From sequence record MK327944.1: a DNA stretch of 64,000 bases. The stretch is one strand, 5' to 3'. Below, piece after piece: positions 20,381 to 38,724 of the stretch. The position numbers and the translations under genes are program-made. This DNA comes from Escherichia phage vB_EcoM_G2540-3. The notes under the pieces were generated by a model. It was not told the DNA's origin. It saw only the letters and a program-made list of their open reading frames with translations, and did no database searches. Positions within the stretch are counted from its first letter, which is position 1, and the number at the start of each line of letters is the position of its first letter.

Positions 20381-20410
20381 ACTATACCATAGTCTTGTCA
20401 GCTTGTAAAC
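20381..20410 (-). promoter_or_regulatory. T4-type early promoter (dmd) with -10 inside an 8-bp inverted repeat
   Basis: Minus strand GTTTAC, 18 nt, TATAGT; arms CAAGACTA and TAGTCTTG. Confidence 0.6.
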
Positions 20411-21837
20411 TAAAATTTTAATTCATTCGCCAAAGCATCTAACTGGGCTCGAGTAGATTCATTTCTTTGATAGCGATTCTGCTCAGCTTGTATCTGTTGT
20501 GAACCTGCTACTTCGTTCACTTCAGTTGGAGTAGAATCTTGCTCAATTTCTACCCATTTCTGATTTCCTTTTTGAACACCCATCAAAAACTTATTCCATT
20601 TATTCTTATCACCATATCGTGATTTGATTTGCTTAATTAGTTGTTGTTCAGCAGCTGCTAACTCCTCGGTTTCAATGACCGCAAGCATAAAATCGGCTGT
20701 TGCTGGAAGACCGGCAGATTCTGCAATATCGCTCATGTTAACATCAGAAGAATCCCAAGCTTGTTTACCAACCTGTGCTGCGGTCCAAAGAACAGTTTCG
20801 GTTTCAACAGCCAGAGCACGTAATTCTTCTGCGATAGCTTTAACAGTTGTGTAACTATTTTCTGAATAAACTCTGATGCGGCAAGATTTACAAATACCCA
20901 GATAGTCAACAATAATGATTGTTGGAACAAAATTCTTCTTGAGCTTTAATTCATTTAAAAGCGACCGAAATGTATTAGCGTCTGCTCCACCAGTAGGATA
21001 CTGTTTAACGATTAAACGGCCGAGAGTAGATTTCTCACGCCATTTTTCCATTTTTCCTTTATATTCAGCGTAAGAAATATGCCCATCATCAATGTCATCA
21101 AGAGAAACATCGAGCATATTAGCGTCAATACGTTTAGCACAGACTTCTTCTGCCATTTCCATGGAAATGTAAAGAACATTATGTCCGAGCTGCAAATAAT
21201 CTGCTGCCAATGAACACAGACCTAATGACTTACCAACGTTAACACCAGCCATTAAAACGTTCAGTGTTCCAGTTTCAGCTCCGCCTTTAGTAATTTTATT
21301 TAGAATTTTGAGTCTAAATGGAACCTTACGAGCTTTATTCATATAAGATAGCCAACGTGCTTCATAGTCATCCATCCAATCATGACCAACGTAACTATCA
21401 AATGAAATTGATAATGCTTGACGCATGATGTCAGGAATAGCACCTACATCTGGCATTTTCTTATTTCGTTTTTCCGGAGGAAGCTCAGCATTAGTTTGGA
21501 TTTCAATTATTTTAGACGTAGCATTAAACATCGCCCTTTGCTGAACATATTTTTCTGTTTCTTTTACTAACCAGCTGTGGTCTTCTGGAGAATCGGTTAG
21601 TTTCGAAATAAGTGTTTTTACGCCAGAATATTCCGTTTCAGTAAATGAACTATTTTCTAATGCAACATTTAACGCATTAATAGATGGAACGCTATGATAC
21701 TCATTAACATGAGATTTAATTAATTTGAATGTATTTTTAGCTGGACCACTTTCAAAATATTCTGAATCCATATATGGCCAAACTTTTGAAAAATAAGCTT
21801 GATCAAATATGAGATGAGAAAGAATAATTTCTACCAC
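20410..21837 (-). CDS. 41: replicative DnaB-like helicase gp41, 475 aa
   Basis: Walker A GVNVGKS, 475 aa, position between 61 and uvsX. Confidence 0.9.
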   Translation of the reverse strand: MVEIILSHLIFDQAYFSKVWPYMDSEYFESGPAKNTFKLIKSHVNEYHSVPSINALNVALENSSFTETEYSGVKTLISKLTDSPEDHSWLVKETEKYVQQRAMFNATSKIIEIQTNAELPPEKRNKKMPDVGAIPDIMRQALSISFDSYVGHDWMDDYEARWLSYMNKARKVPFRLKILNKITKGGAETGTLNVLMAGVNVGKSLGLCSLAADYLQLGHNVLYISMEMAEEVCAKRIDANMLDVSLDDIDDGHISYAEYKGKMEKWREKSTLGRLIVKQYPTGGADANTFRSLLNELKLKKNFVPTIIIVDYLGICKSCRIRVYSENSYTTVKAIAEELRALAVETETVLWTAAQVGKQAWDSSDVNMSDIAESAGLPATADFMLAVIETEELAAAEQQLIKQIKSRYGDKNKWNKFLMGVQKGNQKWVEIEQDSTPTEVNEVAGSQQIQAEQNRYQRNESTRAQLDALANELKF

Positions 21838-21846
21838 ACTTACTCC

Positions 21847-22203
21847 TTAAAAGAATTTAAATTTTTTCTTTGACCTTTTATTAAATGCATCTTGTAGTTG
21901 CATTGTAATACATTTTTCTACATGAGGAGCTAACTCAGCTTTTCTTTCTTGGTCAAGAACAGCAAAGTCCATTACGACTTTTCCATCAACCCAATCTAAT
22001 TTTGTCACATACACAATGTGTGTAGAACCATCTTCTAGTTTAATGACAATCTCCTGGATAACATTTTCCATGGCAGATTTAATTATCTTAAGAGATTCAT
22101 TAAAAAGACGTTCTTTTCTTTCTTCTTCCCCCTCCGAAGAGGGGGATTCGTCGATAATTTCTAGATCTAAATCATCTTTATTCATTAAATTCTTCCATAT
22201 CAC
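21847..22203 (-). CDS. gp40-like protein, 118 aa
   Basis: Position between 41 and uvsX; acidic N-terminal region. Confidence 0.45.
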   Translation of the reverse strand: MIWKNLMNKDDLDLEIIDESPSSEGEEERKERLFNESLKIIKSAMENVIQEIVIKLEDGSTHIVYVTKLDWVDGKVVMDFAVLDQERKAELAPHVEKCITMQLQDAFNKRSKKKFKFF

Positions 22204-23359
22204 TTAACTGATCTAGGTCAGTTTCTAAATCAGCTGCTGATTTACTTTTACTTTCTGGAGATTTAAATTTTTCAACCTTTGAGTTAATCAATTCATCAAC
22301 TTCAGCTTCAACAATTTTATTACTATCAATAGCACCTAATTGATAAGCACGTTTAATAGCATCTCGGAATGGTTGATGCTTAAATAAAGGACCCCAGAAT
22401 GTAGTGCAATTGGTATCTTTTGCGCGCCAAGATTTTTCTTCGCGAATCATCTCGCCGGTTTCTTCATCAAGAAATTCACGAGCATACCAGCCATTTTTAG
22501 GTTTTACTACAAATCCTAATTCAAGAGCCATATCTAACAACCCAGAATAAGGATCGATACCACCGTCAAATTTAACATCAATAAAGAATTTACTTTTTTC
22601 TTTGACGGTACGAGATTTTTCTACATTTAGAACAAATTGATACCCCTGAAGATCAGAACCATCTTTAATCTGACGCTTACCGATAATGAATACAGTATCA
22701 GCCGAATACATCACGCCTGTACCACCTGTCATCACGGTTTTACTAAACATTTCAATTGTTTCAATTGTATGGTTAACCGCAACGCATGGAATGTTTTTAA
22801 TACTAAAATAAGGAGTAACGATACGGAATAATGACTTCAGTGATTTAGCACGAGTCATATCTGCCACAGATTTTTCATTCAAGGCATCTTCCGTTTCTTT
22901 CTTAGAAGCCATATTACCGATTGAGTCGATGAATACAATAACTTTTTCACCACGCTCGATAGCTTCAAGCTGATTCACCATATCAATTTTCAGTTGTTCA
23001 ACTGACTGAATTGGTGTATGAATTACTCGTTCCGGGTCAACTCCCATGGATCGCAAATAAGCTGGAGTGATACCAAATTCGCTATCATAAAATAGACAAA
23101 CTGCATCAGGATATTTGTTCAAATACGCCGCAACCATAGTCAAAGACATATTTGATTTAAAGTGTTTAGAAGGACCTGCAAAAATGGTTAAACCAGACTG
23201 CATACCACCATCAATCGCACCGGAAATAGCAATATTAAGCATTGGGATTTTTGTACGGATTACATCCTTTTCATTAAAGAATTTAGATGTAGTCAGTTCA
23301 GCAGTCATTTTAGAAGTGGAAGCTTTAATCAAACGGGATTTTAAATCTGCAATAGACAT
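22178..23359 (-). CDS. uvsX: UvsX RecA-like recombinase, 393 aa
   Basis: RecA fold with Walker A GPSKHFKS; size close to the 391 aa of T4 UvsX. Confidence 0.9.
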   Translation of the reverse strand: MSIADLKSRLIKASTSKMTAELTTSKFFNEKDVIRTKIPMLNIAISGAIDGGMQSGLTIFAGPSKHFKSNMSLTMVAAYLNKYPDAVCLFYDSEFGITPAYLRSMGVDPERVIHTPIQSVEQLKIDMVNQLEAIERGEKVIVFIDSIGNMASKKETEDALNEKSVADMTRAKSLKSLFRIVTPYFSIKNIPCVAVNHTIETIEMFSKTVMTGGTGVMYSADTVFIIGKRQIKDGSDLQGYQFVLNVEKSRTVKEKSKFFIDVKFDGGIDPYSGLLDMALELGFVVKPKNGWYAREFLDEETGEMIREEKSWRAKDTNCTTFWGPLFKHQPFRDAIKRAYQLGAIDSNKIVEAEVDELINSKVEKFKSPESKSKSAADLETDLDQLSDMEEFNE

Positions 23360-23436: not shown

Positions 23437-24279
23437 TTAATCAACTGCTATTGGATGAATAGCATTAAACTTATGAAACGCTTCTGATTTTTCTTTGCGC
23501 GAAACACACATGCGAAGAACCTTTAATGGCTCATCTTCTTCACCCAACGATTTTCTCTTTTCAATATTCGATGTTTTCCAACGAGCTTGCTCTGGAAATT
23601 CTCTATTGATTTGCTCAAGCGCTCTATTATGTTTAGAATTACTACGAATTGAGCTGCATCCGCCAGGAGCTTGTGCTTTTCCGGATACAACCAGATATTT
23701 GAACAAGGCCAAATGTGGATAACCTTGATTAATTAAATTGAGAAATGCATACATATCTTCGCATAAATCAATTTTTCCATACCCAATTTGTTCTGTTGTA
23801 AGTTTTCCAAGGTCATACCATGTATTCGTGAATCCATATGAATTTTCACGATAATTACCCCAAGATGAAGTAATTTTAAAAATAGGTAGACGAGCATGGC
23901 CATGATAATACCCGCAATCCATGGCATCTTCAACGTATTGAATTAATTCATAGAACTGTTCACGGGTTAATTGATTAATTTTATCTACGCAGCGACGATC
24001 ATCTTTCTTTCGCATTGAACTCATACGAATAGTAGTATCATCATCGATCATCCAAATTCGCTGACCTGCATACATATCAGTAATTGCTTTACGAGTTCCA
24101 GCAATTCCATTAACATCATCAGGAATAGTTATAATTTTAGCTCTAGACCCATAAGCGTCATAATAAGCTTTTTCTTCGTGTTTACGTACTACAATATGAG
24201 GTTCATAATCAGATGGAAACATATCAAGGGCAGAAACTGCCCCTACGCGTTGATAGCTCGGAATTACGAATTGAATCAT
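23437..24279 (-). CDS. GT-A-type glycosyltransferase (DxD), 280 aa; candidate beta-glucosyl-HMC-alpha-glucosyltransferase of T2/T6 type
   Basis: IWMIDDDTT DxD motif; sits where T4 carries beta-gt (between uvsX and gene 42) but is not T4 beta-gt-like. Confidence 0.5.
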   Translation of the reverse strand: MIQFVIPSYQRVGAVSALDMFPSDYEPHIVVRKHEEKAYYDAYGSRAKIITIPDDVNGIAGTRKAITDMYAGQRIWMIDDDTTIRMSSMRKKDDRRCVDKINQLTREQFYELIQYVEDAMDCGYYHGHARLPIFKITSSWGNYRENSYGFTNTWYDLGKLTTEQIGYGKIDLCEDMYAFLNLINQGYPHLALFKYLVVSGKAQAPGGCSSIRSNSKHNRALEQINREFPEQARWKTSNIEKRKSLGEEDEPLKVLRMCVSRKEKSEAFHKFNAIHPIAVD

Positions 24280-24917
24280 TTAAGTGCCTTGCATTTGTCA
24301 AAATGGTATCTTGTCATATTTGGCCCACGTCCTTTTAGTCCGCAATGCGGACATATTTTTTCTATCAAATTATGAGGTTTTCCTTTACGATTTTTAGACA
24401 TCGTTTCTTTAATTATTTTAGCTTTTTCTGCGCCAAAAATTTCTTCATAAGTTTTACCAGAATTTTCCTTTGCTCGATTTATAATTCCATATGCCTGCTC
24501 ATTTTTACCATACATTGGATTACCTTCGCCTTTCATTCTTTTAGAATGATCAGGACGCTTGATTCCACGAAAGGCATTTCCGCACTTATATCTTTCTTCT
24601 GGAGATAGTTTTTTACCGTACATTCCATTTAATTTGCCTGGAAAACTTCCTCCCCATGCTTCATTCTTTAAATTATATGAATCCGGACAATTAGCAGCAT
24701 CTAAACAAGTTAAAATAATTTCTTCAACCTGTCTAAACATTGGTCCTTCATATAATATTTCTTTATTAAAGGATTTTATTCCATATTTCTTTTTAGCATG
24801 TTGCCAAACTACACCCGAACCATCATAATTCGGGTTGTGACCATCATGACTTCCTATATACCACTTTTTAGTTTTAGGATGTTTATACTTATAAACATGT
24901 GGCACATTTACTTCCAT
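24276..24917 (-). CDS. GIY-YIG homing endonuclease (Seg-like), 213 aa
   Basis: N-terminal VYKYKHPKTKKWYIGS GIY-YIG motif; C-terminal zinc-finger-like CPHCG. Confidence 0.75.
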   Translation of the reverse strand: MEVNVPHVYKYKHPKTKKWYIGSHDGHNPNYDGSGVVWQHAKKKYGIKSFNKEILYEGPMFRQVEEIILTCLDAANCPDSYNLKNEAWGGSFPGKLNGMYGKKLSPEERYKCGNAFRGIKRPDHSKRMKGEGNPMYGKNEQAYGIINRAKENSGKTYEEIFGAEKAKIIKETMSKNRKGKPHNLIEKICPHCGLKGRGPNMTRYHFDKCKALK

Positions 24918-25648
24918 TTTCCAGTATAATCCTTTTTAGCAATATGAGTTTCACCAGTGTTCCACCAATGGTCAACTAAATAAAACTGATTTTCGTACAC
25001 ATGAAGACTTCCAACGTTCCATATAATAGAACCTGCTTTATATTGCCGCGATGGGTCGCCTGCATTCAAATCAGATACTAATTTATCTAATACGTATTTT
25101 TGCCATGCATAGTCATTACGATAGCCTGCCCAGCAATCATTGCTTCTCATGTTAACTACTGCATTGACTTTCTTATCACGAATCAGATACTGTACTGTAT
25201 TCGTACACATGAAATCTGACATACCATCTTTATTGTAGTCAAACTGCATGGATGGACGAGTATAAATCATGATACCACGTCGAGAATCAGGATTTTGACC
25301 AAGTTCAGCTAAACACATATCATACTGGGCATAGTTATCTTCTGACCAGATAGCCCAACCATAATTCGAGTTAATTTCACCTTTAGAAGATGCTACCTGT
25401 TGCCAAATCTTTGGCGTTTCGCCTGGAATATCTTTAACAAACAGACTTTGAGACTTATACCATTCAAGTTCACGTTGAATGTATTCATCATTAAGAGCAC
25501 CAAAAATAAAAGGTTCATCTGCTACAAATGATGCGCCAATAATTTCAATAGTTTTAACACCAGTTTTATCAACTACGAAATCTTTTTCCTTTAATGCAAT
25601 TCCCAAATGAAGACGGGTTTCTTCAACTGTCATAGAGTCATTAATCAT
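24908..25648 (-). CDS. 42: dCMP hydroxymethylase gp42, 246 aa
   Basis: Thymidylate-synthase-like fold, 246 aa as in T4 gp42. Confidence 0.85.
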   Translation of the reverse strand: MINDSMTVEETRLHLGIALKEKDFVVDKTGVKTIEIIGASFVADEPFIFGALNDEYIQRELEWYKSQSLFVKDIPGETPKIWQQVASSKGEINSNYGWAIWSEDNYAQYDMCLAELGQNPDSRRGIMIYTRPSMQFDYNKDGMSDFMCTNTVQYLIRDKKVNAVVNMRSNDCWAGYRNDYAWQKYVLDKLVSDLNAGDPSRQYKAGSIIWNVGSLHVYENQFYLVDHWWNTGETHIAKKDYTGKWK

Positions 25649-25655
25649 TTAAACC

Positions 25656-25805
25656 TCAATTGATACATTCATATTTAACTTGTAACAGTAATAAGCTCCA
25701 GCCTAAAATAATAGTTGGAATCATACAAGGAACTGCTACGCTATAGTATATACTTATTATAATCATCAAGATTAAAAGCAACACTGCTAAAATTTTGCTT
25801 TTCAT
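25656..25805 (-). CDS. small membrane protein, 49 aa (below ORF-track cutoff; imm.1 position)
   Basis: MKSKILAVLLLILMIIISIYYSV...; ATGA overlap with the imm stop. Confidence 0.4.
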   Translation of the reverse strand: MKSKILAVLLLILMIIISIYYSVAVPCMIPTIILGWSLLLLQVKYECIN

Positions 25806-26053
25806 TCCTTCTCTCTGATGATAATTACTTGATTTTGCTGTACAGATTTTTTAGTTTCACCCGCAATTGACCAAATAAATGTAATAAACCAACCAATGAT
25901 TGACCAGTTAAACAGTAAAGATGTGAAAAAGATTCCTACTGTCGATTTTGACCCACGCATCAAGGCGATGAACCACGGAAGCATGTATATAATAATAGCC
26001 AACACACCTGAAACTAAAACCATAAAAATTGAACCTGCTACTAAAGTTTCCAT
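25802..26053 (-). CDS. imm: superinfection immunity protein Imm-like membrane protein, 83 aa
   Basis: 83 aa with two hydrophobic helices; position between 42 and 43. Confidence 0.6.
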   Translation of the reverse strand: METLVAGSIFMVLVSGVLAIIIYMLPWFIALMRGSKSTVGIFFTSLLFNWSIIGWFITFIWSIAGETKKSVQQNQVIIIREKE

Positions 26054-26622: not shown

Positions 26623-29319
26623 TCAGCCAAACAGGAAGTCTAACGAAGCTTTTTCTTCATAGTCCATACCAGCCGATTCACACATACCTGCAAGCGGTTT
26701 AACAAACGATTTTTGGAACAAAGTTGAGTAGTCAATCCAAGACAGTACATCAGAACGAATTTCTTTTGGAAGTTCTGTACCCGACGGCCAAGCAATGCAC
26801 TTATCACCAAATGGATTTCCTTCACGTAATGGAAGAACCATTACCTTATTTCCATCCAAAATTGGAGCTACACCCAGACCACTAACAGCTCGACGATAAG
26901 TTAGCACACCACGAATATGGAACGGACATTTAAATCCTGGCCAACCTTTATCATCATATTTCGCTATATCGTTCGCAGTTTTTACTTCAGCAATAACTTT
27001 ATAGTCAAGTTGACGATATTCTTTCTCGAAGTTCTTGTAATATTCTTGGACAGACTCTTCACCTTCCTGAAGAATACGACGAATACTTTCTTCGAGAGCT
27101 TCTTGCACTGCCTTTGGTGTTGAACTCTGCTGAGTTTCCATACCCATGATTTTTAGATGCGGTTCAGCAAATCGTTTATCTTCCATATCATAAACGTTCA
27201 GAGCATAACGCTTTTTCGCTTTCCAAAATCCGCCGACGCCCTTTGAACCAAGTGGAGGGCAAGAAATAGCTTCACGGTCCATATGCATCAGATGCTCGCG
27301 GTTATTCATATAATCACATAACTCACGATATGCAACATCAATCATAGGTTCCATCTTTTTCTTACCGAACTGATTCATGAATTCAACTAAATCGTTCTGC
27401 TCTTTGAATCGGTCAAGACCAACTTTTTCAATAACTTTATCTACGCAAACATATACCGAATCAGTATCACCTGCTGCAATGAAATCTTCATCATTAGTTC
27501 CGCATACTTTATTCAGATATTCATTAATTTTACGAGCAATCCACTGAATACCGACTTGGCCAAAAATTGTGATAGCAGTAGCATTTCGCAAATCATAGTA
27601 ACGGAAATGAATATTACCAAGAGCACCATAAAGACTGTTAATAAGAATTTTACGGTTCAGCTGATTTGTATTAGCAAGTGTAGCCGCTTTTTCACATTCT
27701 TCAATCAGACTATTAAGAACAGATTCAGTATAATTCGATAGCTCATTTAAGAAATCATCACTGAACTTAACATATCGTTCAACTTCTGGTTTAGTTGAAC
27801 AAGACCCTGCGCCTTTCATAATAATCTTTTTAATAGCTTCGGCATTCATTTCTTCAGCGAACATTTTCTTTTTCCAGTCTTTACGCTGGAAAAATACTTT
27901 AGCGATTTCCTTTGGAATGATACCTTCTTGATGCTTATCATACATCCATCCATTCGGAGAACAAGAATATTCATCACTTGGTTTAGGAGCTGTTCCTGCG
28001 ATATATTCATGAATTGGATGAACTTTGAACTGACCACGAATAGTTTCAGGACTAATGTTAACCTGACGAATAATGCTAGGATACAGAGACGTCAAGTCAA
28101 AACTCATAATATATCGACGAGCAATCGGTTTAGGTTCAAACACAAATGCACCCGGAAAACTCTGTTTAACGTGCGAACCTTGTTGAGGAATAACCTTGTG
28201 TTCACCTTTCAACGAGTTAAAAATAATAGCATCCCAAGTTTTAATAGGACTCATTACACCAGAAAAAGGCATTTTAGCGTAATAAGACATACTTAAAACT
28301 AGATCGATAAACCCGCGAATTTTATCGATTGCTTGAACTGATTCTACGTCAATGATGTTATAACTAATGTATCGTTGATGATTAGTCTCACGAAGTTTAT
28401 TAATAGGACCGTCGTATGGTAATTTACCTTTTTTGGTTTCATGTTGAGCAACTGATTCCAAAGAGAATGACGGCAAATTAGTAAATGCGAACTTCTTGTA
28501 CAAATCTAAATAATCAAGAATAGATACGCCATCAATAGAATAAATTTCTTTGCTACCGTACATATTTTGAATTAGTTTAGATTTTACCCGACCGATTGGA
28601 GAGAAACGTTTCATACTACGTTCGCCCAGAATCATTTTAACGCGATTCATAATATATGGAACGTCAAATCCCTCAATATTCCAACCAGTAAAAATAGCAG
28701 GTCGTTTCTGTTCCCAAAGATTGATATATTCCATGAGCATATCGCGCTCATTATCGAATGGCATATAAATTACTCGGTCAAGAATTTCTTGAGGAACTTC
28801 ATCACCACCTTCACAGTCAAGCTTAGCAGCTAACTTTGCATCCCATTTTGATACTGAACCGTACATTGAATTCAAAAGGTCGAAAACATAAAAACGGTCG
28901 TCAATTGAATCATAATGAGTGATAGCATCAATTTCATATTCTGCTTTCATTGGGTCAGGAAATTTATCACCAGTAACCTCAATGTCGCAGTTAGCTACAC
29001 GAACAAATTTTCGGTCATAAACAATTTCTGAACCATACGTATCACTGATATAAGCGAGTTTAAAATCGTTCATACCGAGAGCTTCGAGACCGATGTCTTC
29101 CATTCGCTTCATCCAATCTCGAGCATCTTTCATTGATGGAAATTTTTGAGGAGCGCAATTTTTACCATAAATGTCTTTGTATTTTGACTCTTCCTTACAA
29201 TGCCTAAACATAGTTGGAAGATATTCTACTTCACGAGTACGTTCCTTTCCGTTTTCATCAATATAACGTTCAACAATGTTATTTCCGACTGTTTCAATAG
29301 AGATATAAAATTCTTTCAT
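26623..29319 (-). CDS. 43: DNA polymerase gp43 (family B), 898 aa
   Basis: 898 aa, exonuclease and polymerase motifs (for example YGDTDS at IAAGDTDSVY). Confidence 0.95.
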   Translation of the reverse strand: MKEFYISIETVGNNIVERYIDENGKERTREVEYLPTMFRHCKEESKYKDIYGKNCAPQKFPSMKDARDWMKRMEDIGLEALGMNDFKLAYISDTYGSEIVYDRKFVRVANCDIEVTGDKFPDPMKAEYEIDAITHYDSIDDRFYVFDLLNSMYGSVSKWDAKLAAKLDCEGGDEVPQEILDRVIYMPFDNERDMLMEYINLWEQKRPAIFTGWNIEGFDVPYIMNRVKMILGERSMKRFSPIGRVKSKLIQNMYGSKEIYSIDGVSILDYLDLYKKFAFTNLPSFSLESVAQHETKKGKLPYDGPINKLRETNHQRYISYNIIDVESVQAIDKIRGFIDLVLSMSYYAKMPFSGVMSPIKTWDAIIFNSLKGEHKVIPQQGSHVKQSFPGAFVFEPKPIARRYIMSFDLTSLYPSIIRQVNISPETIRGQFKVHPIHEYIAGTAPKPSDEYSCSPNGWMYDKHQEGIIPKEIAKVFFQRKDWKKKMFAEEMNAEAIKKIIMKGAGSCSTKPEVERYVKFSDDFLNELSNYTESVLNSLIEECEKAATLANTNQLNRKILINSLYGALGNIHFRYYDLRNATAITIFGQVGIQWIARKINEYLNKVCGTNDEDFIAAGDTDSVYVCVDKVIEKVGLDRFKEQNDLVEFMNQFGKKKMEPMIDVAYRELCDYMNNREHLMHMDREAISCPPLGSKGVGGFWKAKKRYALNVYDMEDKRFAEPHLKIMGMETQQSSTPKAVQEALEESIRRILQEGEESVQEYYKNFEKEYRQLDYKVIAEVKTANDIAKYDDKGWPGFKCPFHIRGVLTYRRAVSGLGVAPILDGNKVMVLPLREGNPFGDKCIAWPSGTELPKEIRSDVLSWIDYSTLFQKSFVKPLAGMCESAGMDYEEKASLDFLFG

Positions 29320-35728: not shown

Positions 35729-36744
35729 TGTGTTGCCTCTACATATAACTGATTTGCATATTGAATAAGTGCTTCACGGTCAGAATCAGTGATGTCTGGA
35801 ATTGCATTAATGTATTCTTCCATCAACGTCTGAAGAGATTGAACTTCAACTTCTTCACTGTCATCTGACTCGACAGAGTTATCAATCTTTGACACAACTC
35901 GTAATGAATGCACAACTTTTTCTAGTTCAGATTCGAACTTCGTCAGATTTTTGTCTACTTCAGTTACTATAACACGTACTGATAGATTTGTAAAATCTTT
36001 ATAGTCAATTTTTCCTTTAAACGGATAATGAATTCTACGATGCCAGGTAGTATTGTTTGGAATAAATTCCATTCGTTCTGTTTCTGTATCAAACATCCAG
36101 AACCCGCGAGGGTCATTCTCGTCACCTGCAGTTAGTGTCCATGGTGTCCCAATATATCTGACGTTAGCAGCCTCAGAGATAGTATGGAAGTGACCAGACC
36201 ACACTTCTTTATAAGTCTTAAGGAAATCAGGTTCAAGACCGTGAGATTTCATTCCTTTATAAAAATAAAATCCATTCAGTTCCCAGTGACCAACACAAAA
36301 AGAAGCAGAAGAAGTTTTTATGTGCTCGAGAATTTCACCAGTATTTTCTTCACACATCCAAGGAATTAAATCAATTAAACATCCGTCAAAATCTACTGTA
36401 GTAGGCTTATCATACACTTTAACATTAGGATATTTAGCCAAAAGCTCAGTAGAAGCATTTGGATGCATTACATTTTTGTAGTGGAGATCGTGATTTCCTA
36501 CAATAGTATGTAATGTGATTCCAGCGTCATCAAGCATTTGAACTATTTCACGGGCAAACTCCATAGTTTTATGTGTAATTGCTTTTCGCACATCAAAAAT
36601 ATCACCATATTGAATCCATACAGTAATTCCATTTTTCTTAGAATATTCTATCGCTTGCTTAATTCCATCAATTTGAATACCGCGAATCCACTCATCATCA
36701 GCTTTAACGCCTAAATGCCAATCACCCAAGTTTAGTATTTTCAT
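35725..36744 (-). CDS. 47: recombination nuclease gp47 (Mre11/SbcD-like), 339 aa
   Basis: Phosphoesterase motifs MKILNLGDWHLG, GDIFD, GNHD; 339 aa. Confidence 0.9.
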   Translation of the reverse strand: MKILNLGDWHLGVKADDEWIRGIQIDGIKQAIEYSKKNGITVWIQYGDIFDVRKAITHKTMEFAREIVQMLDDAGITLHTIVGNHDLHYKNVMHPNASTELLAKYPNVKVYDKPTTVDFDGCLIDLIPWMCEENTGEILEHIKTSSASFCVGHWELNGFYFYKGMKSHGLEPDFLKTYKEVWSGHFHTISEAANVRYIGTPWTLTAGDENDPRGFWMFDTETERMEFIPNNTTWHRRIHYPFKGKIDYKDFTNLSVRVIVTEVDKNLTKFESELEKVVHSLRVVSKIDNSVESDDSEEVEVQSLQTLMEEYINAIPDITDSDREALIQYANQLYVEATQ

Positions 36745-37345
36745 GGTGTCTTTTCCATCCTAATTTAGCTGCTTTTGAAACCAGTTCTTTAATTTTTCCT
36801 TTTGTCCATTCAGGACCAGGAGGTTCATGACATAACATTTGCTTAACTCCGTTATTATACCATTTTTTACCTTTATTATGTGATGAAGCTTTAAATTTAT
36901 TTGACCTTCCTTTTACATAACCTTCTGGAATATAAGGCAAAAAGGCAGATTTTCCTGTTAATGGATCATGTGAATGTATATTTCCTTTACAATTATGAGA
37001 ACCATATAATGGATGATTTTGTCCTTTATTATCTCTTCCAAATGAACCTTTTGGAGCAGCATATGACATATTAAAGAATAATGGATTTTTAACTGCATCA
37101 TGCAATCGTTGATAATATAACTCGCATTTAATAGCTTCTTCACGCGTATCAAATTCAGCTAAAATGCATGAATCAAATAAGTGAGGATTATCTGAAAGCT
37201 CTTTATTATAAATTTTCTTATACTTTTTAGATAAAACTGAACCATGATATCCAGCTAAATGCCTATCTAAAGACGTAGATCCAATATAAAAAGGAGGAAG
37301 TTTATCTCCGCTATATATTGTTAAATAAGTTATATATTTTTTCAT
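36722..37345 (-). CDS. GIY-YIG homing endonuclease (Seg-like), 207 aa
   Basis: N-terminal YITYLTIYSGDKLPPFYIGST... GIY-YIG-like motif. Confidence 0.65.
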   Translation of the reverse strand: MKKYITYLTIYSGDKLPPFYIGSTSLDRHLAGYHGSVLSKKYKKIYNKELSDNPHLFDSCILAEFDTREEAIKCELYYQRLHDAVKNPLFFNMSYAAPKGSFGRDNKGQNHPLYGSHNCKGNIHSHDPLTGKSAFLPYIPEGYVKGRSNKFKASSHNKGKKWYNNGVKQMLCHEPPGPEWTKGKIKELVSKAAKLGWKRHHENTKLG

Positions 37346-37505: not shown

Positions 37506-37523
37506 AAAGGGCCGAAGCCCTTT
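37506..37523 (-). other. UUCG hairpin after alpha-gt
   Basis: Minus RNA AAAGGGC-UUCG-GCCCUUU overlapping the alpha-gt stop. Confidence 0.55.
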
Positions 37524-38724
37524 ATTTTGTAATAATGTCAAACTGTTCTTTAAAGCAGAAGCTTGAATCTTGATGCTGATACAAAAATTCATAAGCTTTT
37601 TCGCGTTCGCGGTCATAAAGAGTTCGGTCAGATGACAGTTCTTTAATACGTTCAAATGTTGATTCCATGTCATTTTCATCAAACCAAATGATACCGCTAT
37701 CATGCGAGGTCAAAGGAGTATTATCAACACGGAATTTTAAATTTTCGCCAGTAGATTTCCAAAATACCGGAATTGTTCCACATGCACCAAGCTCGAGATG
37801 AGTATATTCTAAAGAGCGCTGTAGATATTTTTTATCCAACTTACTCAACTGATAACCAAAACCGGATTTACTCATACGTTCAAGCATTTCGCTATTTACA
37901 TAACGGTCAAGAATTTGCGTTGGCAAATTAGGAGCAATTTTAATTTGGTCTACTTGATGAAGACGATAATACTCGTATGGAATTCCTTTTTCTTTAATAG
38001 GAATGAACGCTGGAGAACGTTCCAGACCTTCCATAATAGTACTTAGTCCTGCAGGTTTAAGATGTTTTTCATGAAAATCAAACATCTGATAAAAACCTTT
38101 CCATGTAGTCGTACGACCAATCCAACGGTTGATATTCATGTTAATTTCAGAAACATCTTTCCAGTAGGTTGATCGAACCTTCGCAATATCCATAGGAGGC
38201 TGAAAGTTATATACTGTCGGCGCTTCTTCAATATCATCAAACAGAGAAACTGTTTCCGGATACCATTCTTTCATCAGAACTTTATTAAAATCGCCATTAT
38301 CAGAATGGCTAAAAATAACATCAGCTCGACGAACAGTTTCTTCTAATCCCAAATTTCGACGCAAAGAAAGAGAAGAATGGTCATGCTGATAAACTACAAC
38401 ACGAACAGAAGGTTTAATGTTATCAATAATTTTTTTATAGTTATTAATAGTGTCTTCTTCAACCCAAGTAGCAGGAACTGAATTGATAATTAGAATATCA
38501 CAATCATTTACCAGCTTAAGTGTTTTATCGTATTCTTTTGCCAATAAAACCGGAATTGAAAATGATTTATAATCATGCGCGCAATTACGAGTAAATGATT
38601 TATCTTTAGCATAAACCAAAGTCACTTCATGACCATTTTTAATAAACCAATCACGTTGCTCGAGTGAGAATTTAGTTACACCACAACCTTCAAGACCTCG
38701 AGCCATAAAAATACATACTTTCAT
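37522..38724 (-). CDS. a-gt: DNA alpha-glucosyltransferase, 400 aa
   Basis: 400 aa; N-terminus MKVCIFMARGLEGCGVTKFSLEQRDWFIKNGHEV is alpha-gt-like. Confidence 0.85.
   Translation of the reverse strand: MKVCIFMARGLEGCGVTKFSLEQRDWFIKNGHEVTLVYAKDKSFTRNCAHDYKSFSIPVLLAKEYDKTLKLVNDCDILIINSVPATWVEEDTINNYKKIIDNIKPSVRVVVYQHDHSSLSLRRNLGLEETVRRADVIFSHSDNGDFNKVLMKEWYPETVSLFDDIEEAPTVYNFQPPMDIAKVRSTYWKDVSEINMNINRWIGRTTTWKGFYQMFDFHEKHLKPAGLSTIMEGLERSPAFIPIKEKGIPYEYYRLHQVDQIKIAPNLPTQILDRYVNSEMLERMSKSGFGYQLSKLDKKYLQRSLEYTHLELGACGTIPVFWKSTGENLKFRVDNTPLTSHDSGIIWFDENDMESTFERIKELSSDRTLYDREREKAYEFLYQHQDSSFCFKEQFDIITK

Follow-up and report, generated by a model that had tools for sequence, protein, structure and literature searches.

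A TAGT-family orthologue of the T2/T6 beta-glucosyl-HMC-alpha-glucosyltransferase in the uvsX-gene 42 slot of a Tequatrovirus phage

The genes of phages T2 and T6 for the second step of hmC glucosylation were reportedly cloned in 1993 by Winkler and Rueger, in a study in Nucleic Acids Res. In both phages, an alpha-glucosyltransferase (alpha-GT) glucosylates hmC and a second enzyme extends the alpha-glucose by a further glucose in beta-1,6 linkage, which yields gentiobiosyl-hmC (PMC6024577, PMC11078745, PMC13216743, bioRxiv 10.64898/2026.02.25.707755). The extent of this second step differs, with about 5% of the hmC gentiobiosylated in T2 (PMC6024577, PMC11078745) and about 72% in T6. Deletion of the T6 gene leaves alpha-glucosyl-hmC only, presumed to make up about 75% of the cytosines (PMC11078745). 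The presence of this base in the mutant is supported by the glycosylase Brig1, which degrades the mutant DNA (PMC11078745), and by the deglucosylase BapA, which releases glucose from it (bioRxiv 10.64898/2026.02.25.707755). For Tequatrovirus phage TB37, HPLC/MS of the DNA revealed about one-third hmdC, about two-thirds alpha-gentiobiosyl-hmdC and little alpha-glucosyl-hmdC, and a share of about two-thirds alpha-gentiobiosyl-hmC was also obtained for NR1 and others (PMC13390438). High gentiobiosylation is found in most isolates of the genus that carry the gene and were analysed by MS, and some Durham phages with the same gene present an intermediate 1:2:2 ratio (PMC13390438). The T6 enzyme, termed TAGT, adopts a GT-A fold that is sister to GT2 (PMC13216743), and TAGT genes are found at a position syntenic with T4 beta-GT (PMC13390438). 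The combination of alpha-GT and TAGT is common, and the T4 pair of alpha-GT and beta-GT is rare, being present in 6 of 753 phage genomes (PMC13216743). The gene itself (reviewed in PMC6024577), its position (PMC13390438), its GT-A fold (PMC13216743) and its effect on defence, described below, are all published and already known.

Here, the equivalent locus was analysed in a window of 64 kb, the whole stretch of phage DNA under study. The minus-strand genes around the transferase gene, ggt, follow the replication and recombination cluster of T4, and the features considered are as follows:

20410..21837, minus strand, gene 41, helicase
21847..22203, minus strand, gene 40
22178..23359, minus strand, uvsX, flanking the slot downstream of ggt (Pfam T4_UVSX_C, E=4.7e-39, and RecA; 90% amino acid identity to T4 UvsX)
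23437..24279, minus strand, ggt (ba-gt), beta-glucosyl-HMC-alpha-glucosyltransferase of the TAGT family, GT-A fold, 280 aa
24276..24917, minus strand, Seg-like GIY-YIG homing endonuclease ORF of 213 aa between gene 42 and ggt (PHROG 314, E=1.8e-31)
24908..25648, minus strand, gene 42, dCMP hydroxymethylase, upstream of ggt (Pfam Thymidylat_synt, E=8.9e-15; 92.7% amino acid identity to T4 gp42)
25802..26053, minus strand, imm
26623..29319, minus strand, gene 43, DNA polymerase
36722..37345, minus strand, second Seg-like GIY-YIG ORF, 207 aa, immediately downstream of alpha-gt (PHROG 10820, E=1.1e-94)
37522..38724, minus strand, a-gt, DNA alpha-glucosyltransferase of the T4 type, predicted to make the ggt acceptor alpha-glucosyl-hmC (T4 AGT 1XV5, Pfam AGT, PHROG 2888)

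The ggt ORF is intact, starts with ATG and encodes a 280-aa protein that contains GQRIWMIDDDTTIRM, which includes IWMIDDDTT. Residues 1-275 match PHROG 842, 'beta-glucosyl-HMC-alpha-glucosyltransferase', at E=2e-88. The protein also aligns with positions 2-205 of the 205 in Pfam PF20691, 'TET-associated glycosyltransferase' (TAGT), at 38.3 bits, which is a full-length match above the curated gathering score of 27.5; NCBIfam has no model for either ggt or alpha-gt. A tblastn search located ggt in 689 of 50,697 phage records, 471 of them at an identity of at least 95%. The protein is 100% identical to that of Shigella phage SF2-1, and over 280 aa it shares 97.9% identity with the T2 gene product and 97.1% with that of T6 ggt, both annotated as beta-glucosyl-HMC-alpha-glucosyltransferase (ggt/ba-gt). 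A group with 62-65% identity is encoded in the identical slot of T4-like phages of Klebsiella, Enterobacter and Citrobacter. At the DNA level, the 4-kb region surrounding ggt is 96-98% identical to many Tequatrovirus genomes. Along the composition profile, the GC content stays at about 0.35; it is no different at ggt than in the flanks and shows no anomaly that would point to a recent foreign origin of the gene. Sequence identity and gene neighbourhood together establish orthology to the T2/T6 genes, which have been assigned both genetically and biochemically. The reading preferred here, to which a probability of about 0.93 is given, is that the ORF is the orthologue of the T2/T6 beta-glucosyl-HMC-alpha-glucosyltransferase in a Tequatrovirus phage and that its product would make gentiobiosyl-hmC via the gp42/alpha-GT pathway. 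A preliminary description of this DNA had placed a 280-aa, GT-A-like protein with the sequence IWMIDDDTT between uvsX and gene 42 and had proposed it to be a second glucosyltransferase of the T2/T6 type. The ORF, the motif and the flanking genes were all verified, the comparison with the T2/T6 enzyme gave a clear match over all 280 residues, and the protein matched neither T4 beta-gt nor an unrelated glycosyltransferase family.

The closest relatives allow for a detailed comparison. T2 and T6 ggt (97.1-97.9% identity) share with the window the slot that follows gene 42 and precedes uvsX on the coding strand, the presence of alpha-gt and gene 42, the GT-A fold and the DDD motif. Unlike the window, they have no Seg-like gene between gene 42 and ggt, and their proteins differ from the one studied here by 6-8 substitutions at non-conserved positions; in T2, R11 is additionally not kept. 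The TAGT proteins of TB37 and NR1, Durham Tequatrovirus phages with DNA characterised by HPLC/MS (PMC13390438), are 98.6% and 98.2% identical to the window protein, are encoded among the same surrounding genes and present only 4-5 differences, all outside conserved positions, but both phages lack the homing-endonuclease insertion. Specifically, the differences from TB37 are limited to S23T, K33E, K92R and I101V, each at a non-conserved position. The order uvsX-ggt-42-imm-43 is common to the window, T2, T6, TB37 and NR1, and in the latter four phages the stop of gene 42 directly overlaps the start of ggt.

In T4, the same slot contains beta-gt in place of ggt, together with segA between uvsX and beta-gt. 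T4 beta-gt (PF09198, GT-B, PDB 1JG7) resembles ggt in its location between uvsX and gene 42, its UDP-glucose donor, the beta linkage and the DNA-bound acceptor. In contrast to ggt, it has a GT-B rather than a GT-A fold, and its acceptor is bare hmC instead of alpha-glucosyl-hmC. A kinship of the two enzymes was rejected, as BLASTP of the ggt protein against T4 beta-gt produced a best E of 3.3, without similarity, and tblastn of T4 beta-gt against the whole 64-kb window produced a best E of 1.4, with no beta-gt found; the dissimilarity from T4 beta-gt had already been recognised in the preliminary description. A PDB sequence search with the ggt protein returned only noise (E>=0.75) and hence no solved relative by sequence, and T4 beta-gt was absent among the matches at E<=10, though beta-gt structures exist (1JG7, PMC13216743). 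The description had further presented the gene as occupying the T4 beta-gt slot. The slot is the same, but no unusual replacement has taken place, as alpha-GT plus TAGT is the norm in Tequatrovirus and T4 the exception; likewise, ggt does lie between uvsX and gene 42, but gene 42 is not directly adjacent, since the Seg-like ORF 24276..24917 intervenes. The window represents the common alpha-GT plus TAGT state, and its ggt is an ordinary, intact gene.

The fold and the conserved residues agree with this assignment. An AlphaFold2 (AF2) model of the ggt protein, built with 11 homologues, reached a mean pLDDT of 80.3 and a pTM of 0.81 and displays alternating beta and alpha elements from residue 3 onwards. 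It shows a GT-A fold and lacks the two Rossmann domains of GT-B; B4GALNT1, the chondroitin polymerase K4CP, GnT-I, TarP and others are named with the model. When 1.84 billion representatives were searched with a profile, 2261 members were assigned to the TAGT family at E<=1e-3, and conservation was counted in an alignment of 152 sequences, comprising the ggt protein and 151 of the representatives with a length of 240-340 aa. Conservation is high at R11 (151 of 152, the other being a gap), D79 (150), D80 (152), D81 (146), D175 (152), G186 (149), G206 (150), G207 (152) and R212 (148). The ggt protein retains every one of these residues, which confirms the DxD motif and GT-A-like character that had been noted at the outset. 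Two codon positions read from the sequence are relevant below:

24037..24045, minus strand, codons D79-D80-D81, DxD motif
24247..24249, minus strand, codon R11 (CGC) in the IPSYQR motif after the first beta strand, family-invariant and intact here, His (CAT) in T2

By analogy with GT-A enzymes, D79-D81 would hold the divalent metal and the diphosphate of UDP-glucose. An inverting mechanism is implied because a beta linkage would be formed from UDP-alpha-glucose, and the GT-A fold combined with conservation suggests that the invariant D175, part of an E174-D175 pair, is the likely catalytic general base. The same considerations make the loop 131-149 and the PGGxSxxR motif (205-212) candidate binders of glucosylated DNA. 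The loop LPIFKITSSWGNYRENSYG (residues 131-149; 23833..23889, minus strand) is the sole segment with a pLDDT below 50, yet its sequence varies little between close homologues. N146 is found in 110 of the 152 sequences, and S147, G149, F150, T151 and N152 are nearly invariant (alignment A2); the loop may act as a flexible acceptor- or DNA-binding element. Cellular GT-A glycosyltransferases of the GT2 family (TarP 6H1J, K4CP 2Z86, BcsA 4P00) share 8-17% identity with the ggt protein. In comparison to these enzymes, the acceptor of ggt would be a sugar on duplex DNA, and the conserved PGGxSxxR (205-212) is, like the loop 131-149, specific to TAGT.

The enzymes that make the acceptor, the dCMP hydroxymethylase gp42 and alpha-GT, are both encoded alongside ggt. 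The alpha-gt product matches T4 AGT (PDB 1XV5) over residues 1-400 at E=2e-256 and Pfam AGT at E=4.8e-236, in line with the earlier statement that this gene is conserved. In the predicted pathway, gp42 would make hm-dCMP, leading to hmC in place of C in the DNA, and alpha-GT would then glucosylate some of these hmC residues in alpha linkage. Finally, ggt, as a GT-A enzyme with a DxD motif, would use UDP-glucose to attach a second glucose to the alpha-glucose through a beta-1,6 linkage, forming gentiobiosyl-hmC. Support for this last step comes by proxy from HPLC/MS on phages whose proteins are 98% identical (PMC13390438) and from T6 deletion mutants (PMC11078745). Because the invariant residues are intact and only four substitutions, at non-conserved positions, separate the protein from its TB37 counterpart, a T6/TB37-like pattern rather than the low level of T2 is expected, in which most glucosylated sites would be diglucosylated. 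The DNA of this phage is therefore anticipated to contain hmC, alpha-glucosyl-hmC and mostly gentiobiosyl-hmC, with no beta-glucosyl-hmC. The exact level cannot be taken from the sequence, because the T2 (5%) and T6 (72%) genes are nearly identical.

That a second glucose alters the sensitivity to modification-dependent defence, as had been suggested for this phage, is documented for T6: the delta-ba-gt mutant is more susceptible to Brig1, and wild-type T6 DNA is not degraded by this glycosylase (PMC11078745). [quoted passage not shown] Partial protection against Brig1, which acts on alpha-glucosyl-hmC, and against BapA is accordingly expected here, and sensitivity to GmrSD/BrxU-type enzymes should persist.

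The sole forward-looking point concerns the T2 copy and its substitution at a family-invariant arginine. The T2 ggt protein equals that of TB37 with only R11H and P251S added, and the window protein has neither change. His11 is encoded by CAT in T2 (MH751506, L006:286-1128; PV648364, L002:2501-3343) in comparison to CGC in the window. P251 is variable in the 152-sequence alignment, and R11 is as conserved as the DxD aspartates. Within a stretch of 81 nt, the G-to-A change behind R11H is the only difference of T2 from RB32, Bas44 and PYps32T. Each of the 8 database entries that match this T2 81-mer exactly is a T2 stock or SV76, a result that holds for exact matches to the 81-mer. R11H is a candidate cause of the low diglucosylation of T2 (about 5%, compared to about 72% in T6). 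A tentative extension, which is somewhat doubtful, is that T2 ggt is a natural hypomorph and the R11 enzyme of the window the wild-type, fully active state, so that this phage would be T6-like. No explanation of the difference in gentiobiosylation between T2 and T6 was found in the literature searched, and older publications may hold one.

Alternative readings differ from the preferred one in the activity, specificity or role assigned to the protein. The gene could be the same orthologue with a weak, T2-like activity, so that the DNA would carry mainly alpha-monoglucosyl-hmC and a few percent gentiobiosyl-hmC. The T2 gene, in spite of its 97.9% identity, is associated with gentiobiosylation of about 5% of the hmC (PMC6024577, PMC11078745), and expression of ggt could differ here because a homing-endonuclease gene splits it from gene 42, thereby replacing the 42/ggt start-stop overlap of T2, T6, TB37 and NR1 with a seg/ggt overlap. 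However, ggt thereby keeps a start-stop overlap (ATGA) with its upstream ORF, the window protein carries neither R11H, at a family-invariant residue, nor P251S, and most MS-analysed Tequatrovirus isolates with ggt are highly gentiobiosylated (PMC13390438), which makes weak activity rather unlikely.

A departure in specificity is considerably less plausible still. A TAGT enzyme might use a different sugar donor or directly glycosylate bare hmC or beta-glucosyl-hmC, as the family is large (2261 representatives at E<=1e-3) and varied in function, and many phages combine TAGT with beta-GT or encode TAGT without any other glycosyltransferase, leaving specificity across the family unsettled (PMC13216743). 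For the protein studied here, the full-length identity of 97-100% to the T2/T6 enzymes and to those of phages with MS-proven gentiobiosyl-hmC (PMC13390438) argues against this, as do the presence of the alpha-GT partner and the absence of beta-GT from the window. Least probable, at only a slight chance, is a non-homologous stand-in for T4 beta-gt that beta-monoglucosylates the hmC left bare by alpha-GT, a role suggested by the location of ggt in the genomic slot of T4 beta-gt. The two proteins share no sequence similarity and differ in fold, GT-A here and GT-B in beta-gt (PMC13216743), and phages with ggt contain no beta-glucosyl-hmC and retain about 25-33% bare hmC (PMC13390438, PMC11078745).

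The Seg-like ORF 24276..24917 is an ordinary mobile homing-endonuclease gene and represents context outside the modification pathway. The ORF overlaps both of its neighbours, the stop of gene 42 by 10 nt and the start of ggt by 4 nt, and it presents a weak NUMOD3 match and a TIGR01453 match at E=1.5e-5, below the cut-off of that model. Across 77 phage records there are copies with an identity of at least 95%, which share this slot in the listed records, and a 70% relative occupies the equivalent slot in Klebsiella phages; the ORF is absent from T2, T6, TB37 and NR1. One record labels it 'SegD'. The second Seg-like ORF, 36722..37345, matches Pfam GIY-YIG at E=3e-4, just under the cut-off. A link between the insertion and the intermediate 1:2:2 group of Durham phages is unsupported, with Lutter and phiD1 being listed relatives in which gene 42 adjoins the transferase. 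The insertion is likewise missing from TB37 and NR1, members of the high-level group, so that none of the MS-characterised phages inspected (TB37, NR1) has it. In the T4 record KJ477684 (L003:2049-2886), 838 bp between uvsX and b-gt are unannotated, yet they translate to a GIY-YIG protein, which we take to be segA. Because this T4 stretch encodes a GIY-YIG protein, the slot between uvsX and gene 42 appears to host differing homing-endonuclease genes from phage to phage. Between 23300 and 26000, 14 sigma-70 promoter-like sites were counted compared to 12.2 expected from shuffles, in a scan outside of which T4 middle and late promoters fall, and 2 terminators compared to 1.1 in shuffles, which is no enrichment.

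Individual records of T6 deviate from the window in ways of their own. In MH550421 (L001:2501-3343), which stands alone among 472 records in this respect, codon 10 of ggt is the amber triplet TAG, and the annotated gene begins at M20. In NC_054907/AP018814 (L005:912-1751), the product has 279 aa and one Asp of the invariant DDD is deleted (IWMI-DDTT). These oddities represent either stock mutations, or sequencing errors in the GATGATGAT run, or changes that the enzyme tolerates. In addition, public labels for ggt are inconsistent and include 'b-gt', 'beta-glucosyltransferase', 'putative beta-glucosyltransferase', 'glycosyltransferase like family 2', 'glucosyl transferase' and 'hypothetical protein'; of these, 'b-gt' and beta-glucosyltransferase are misleading, as they imply the T4 enzyme.
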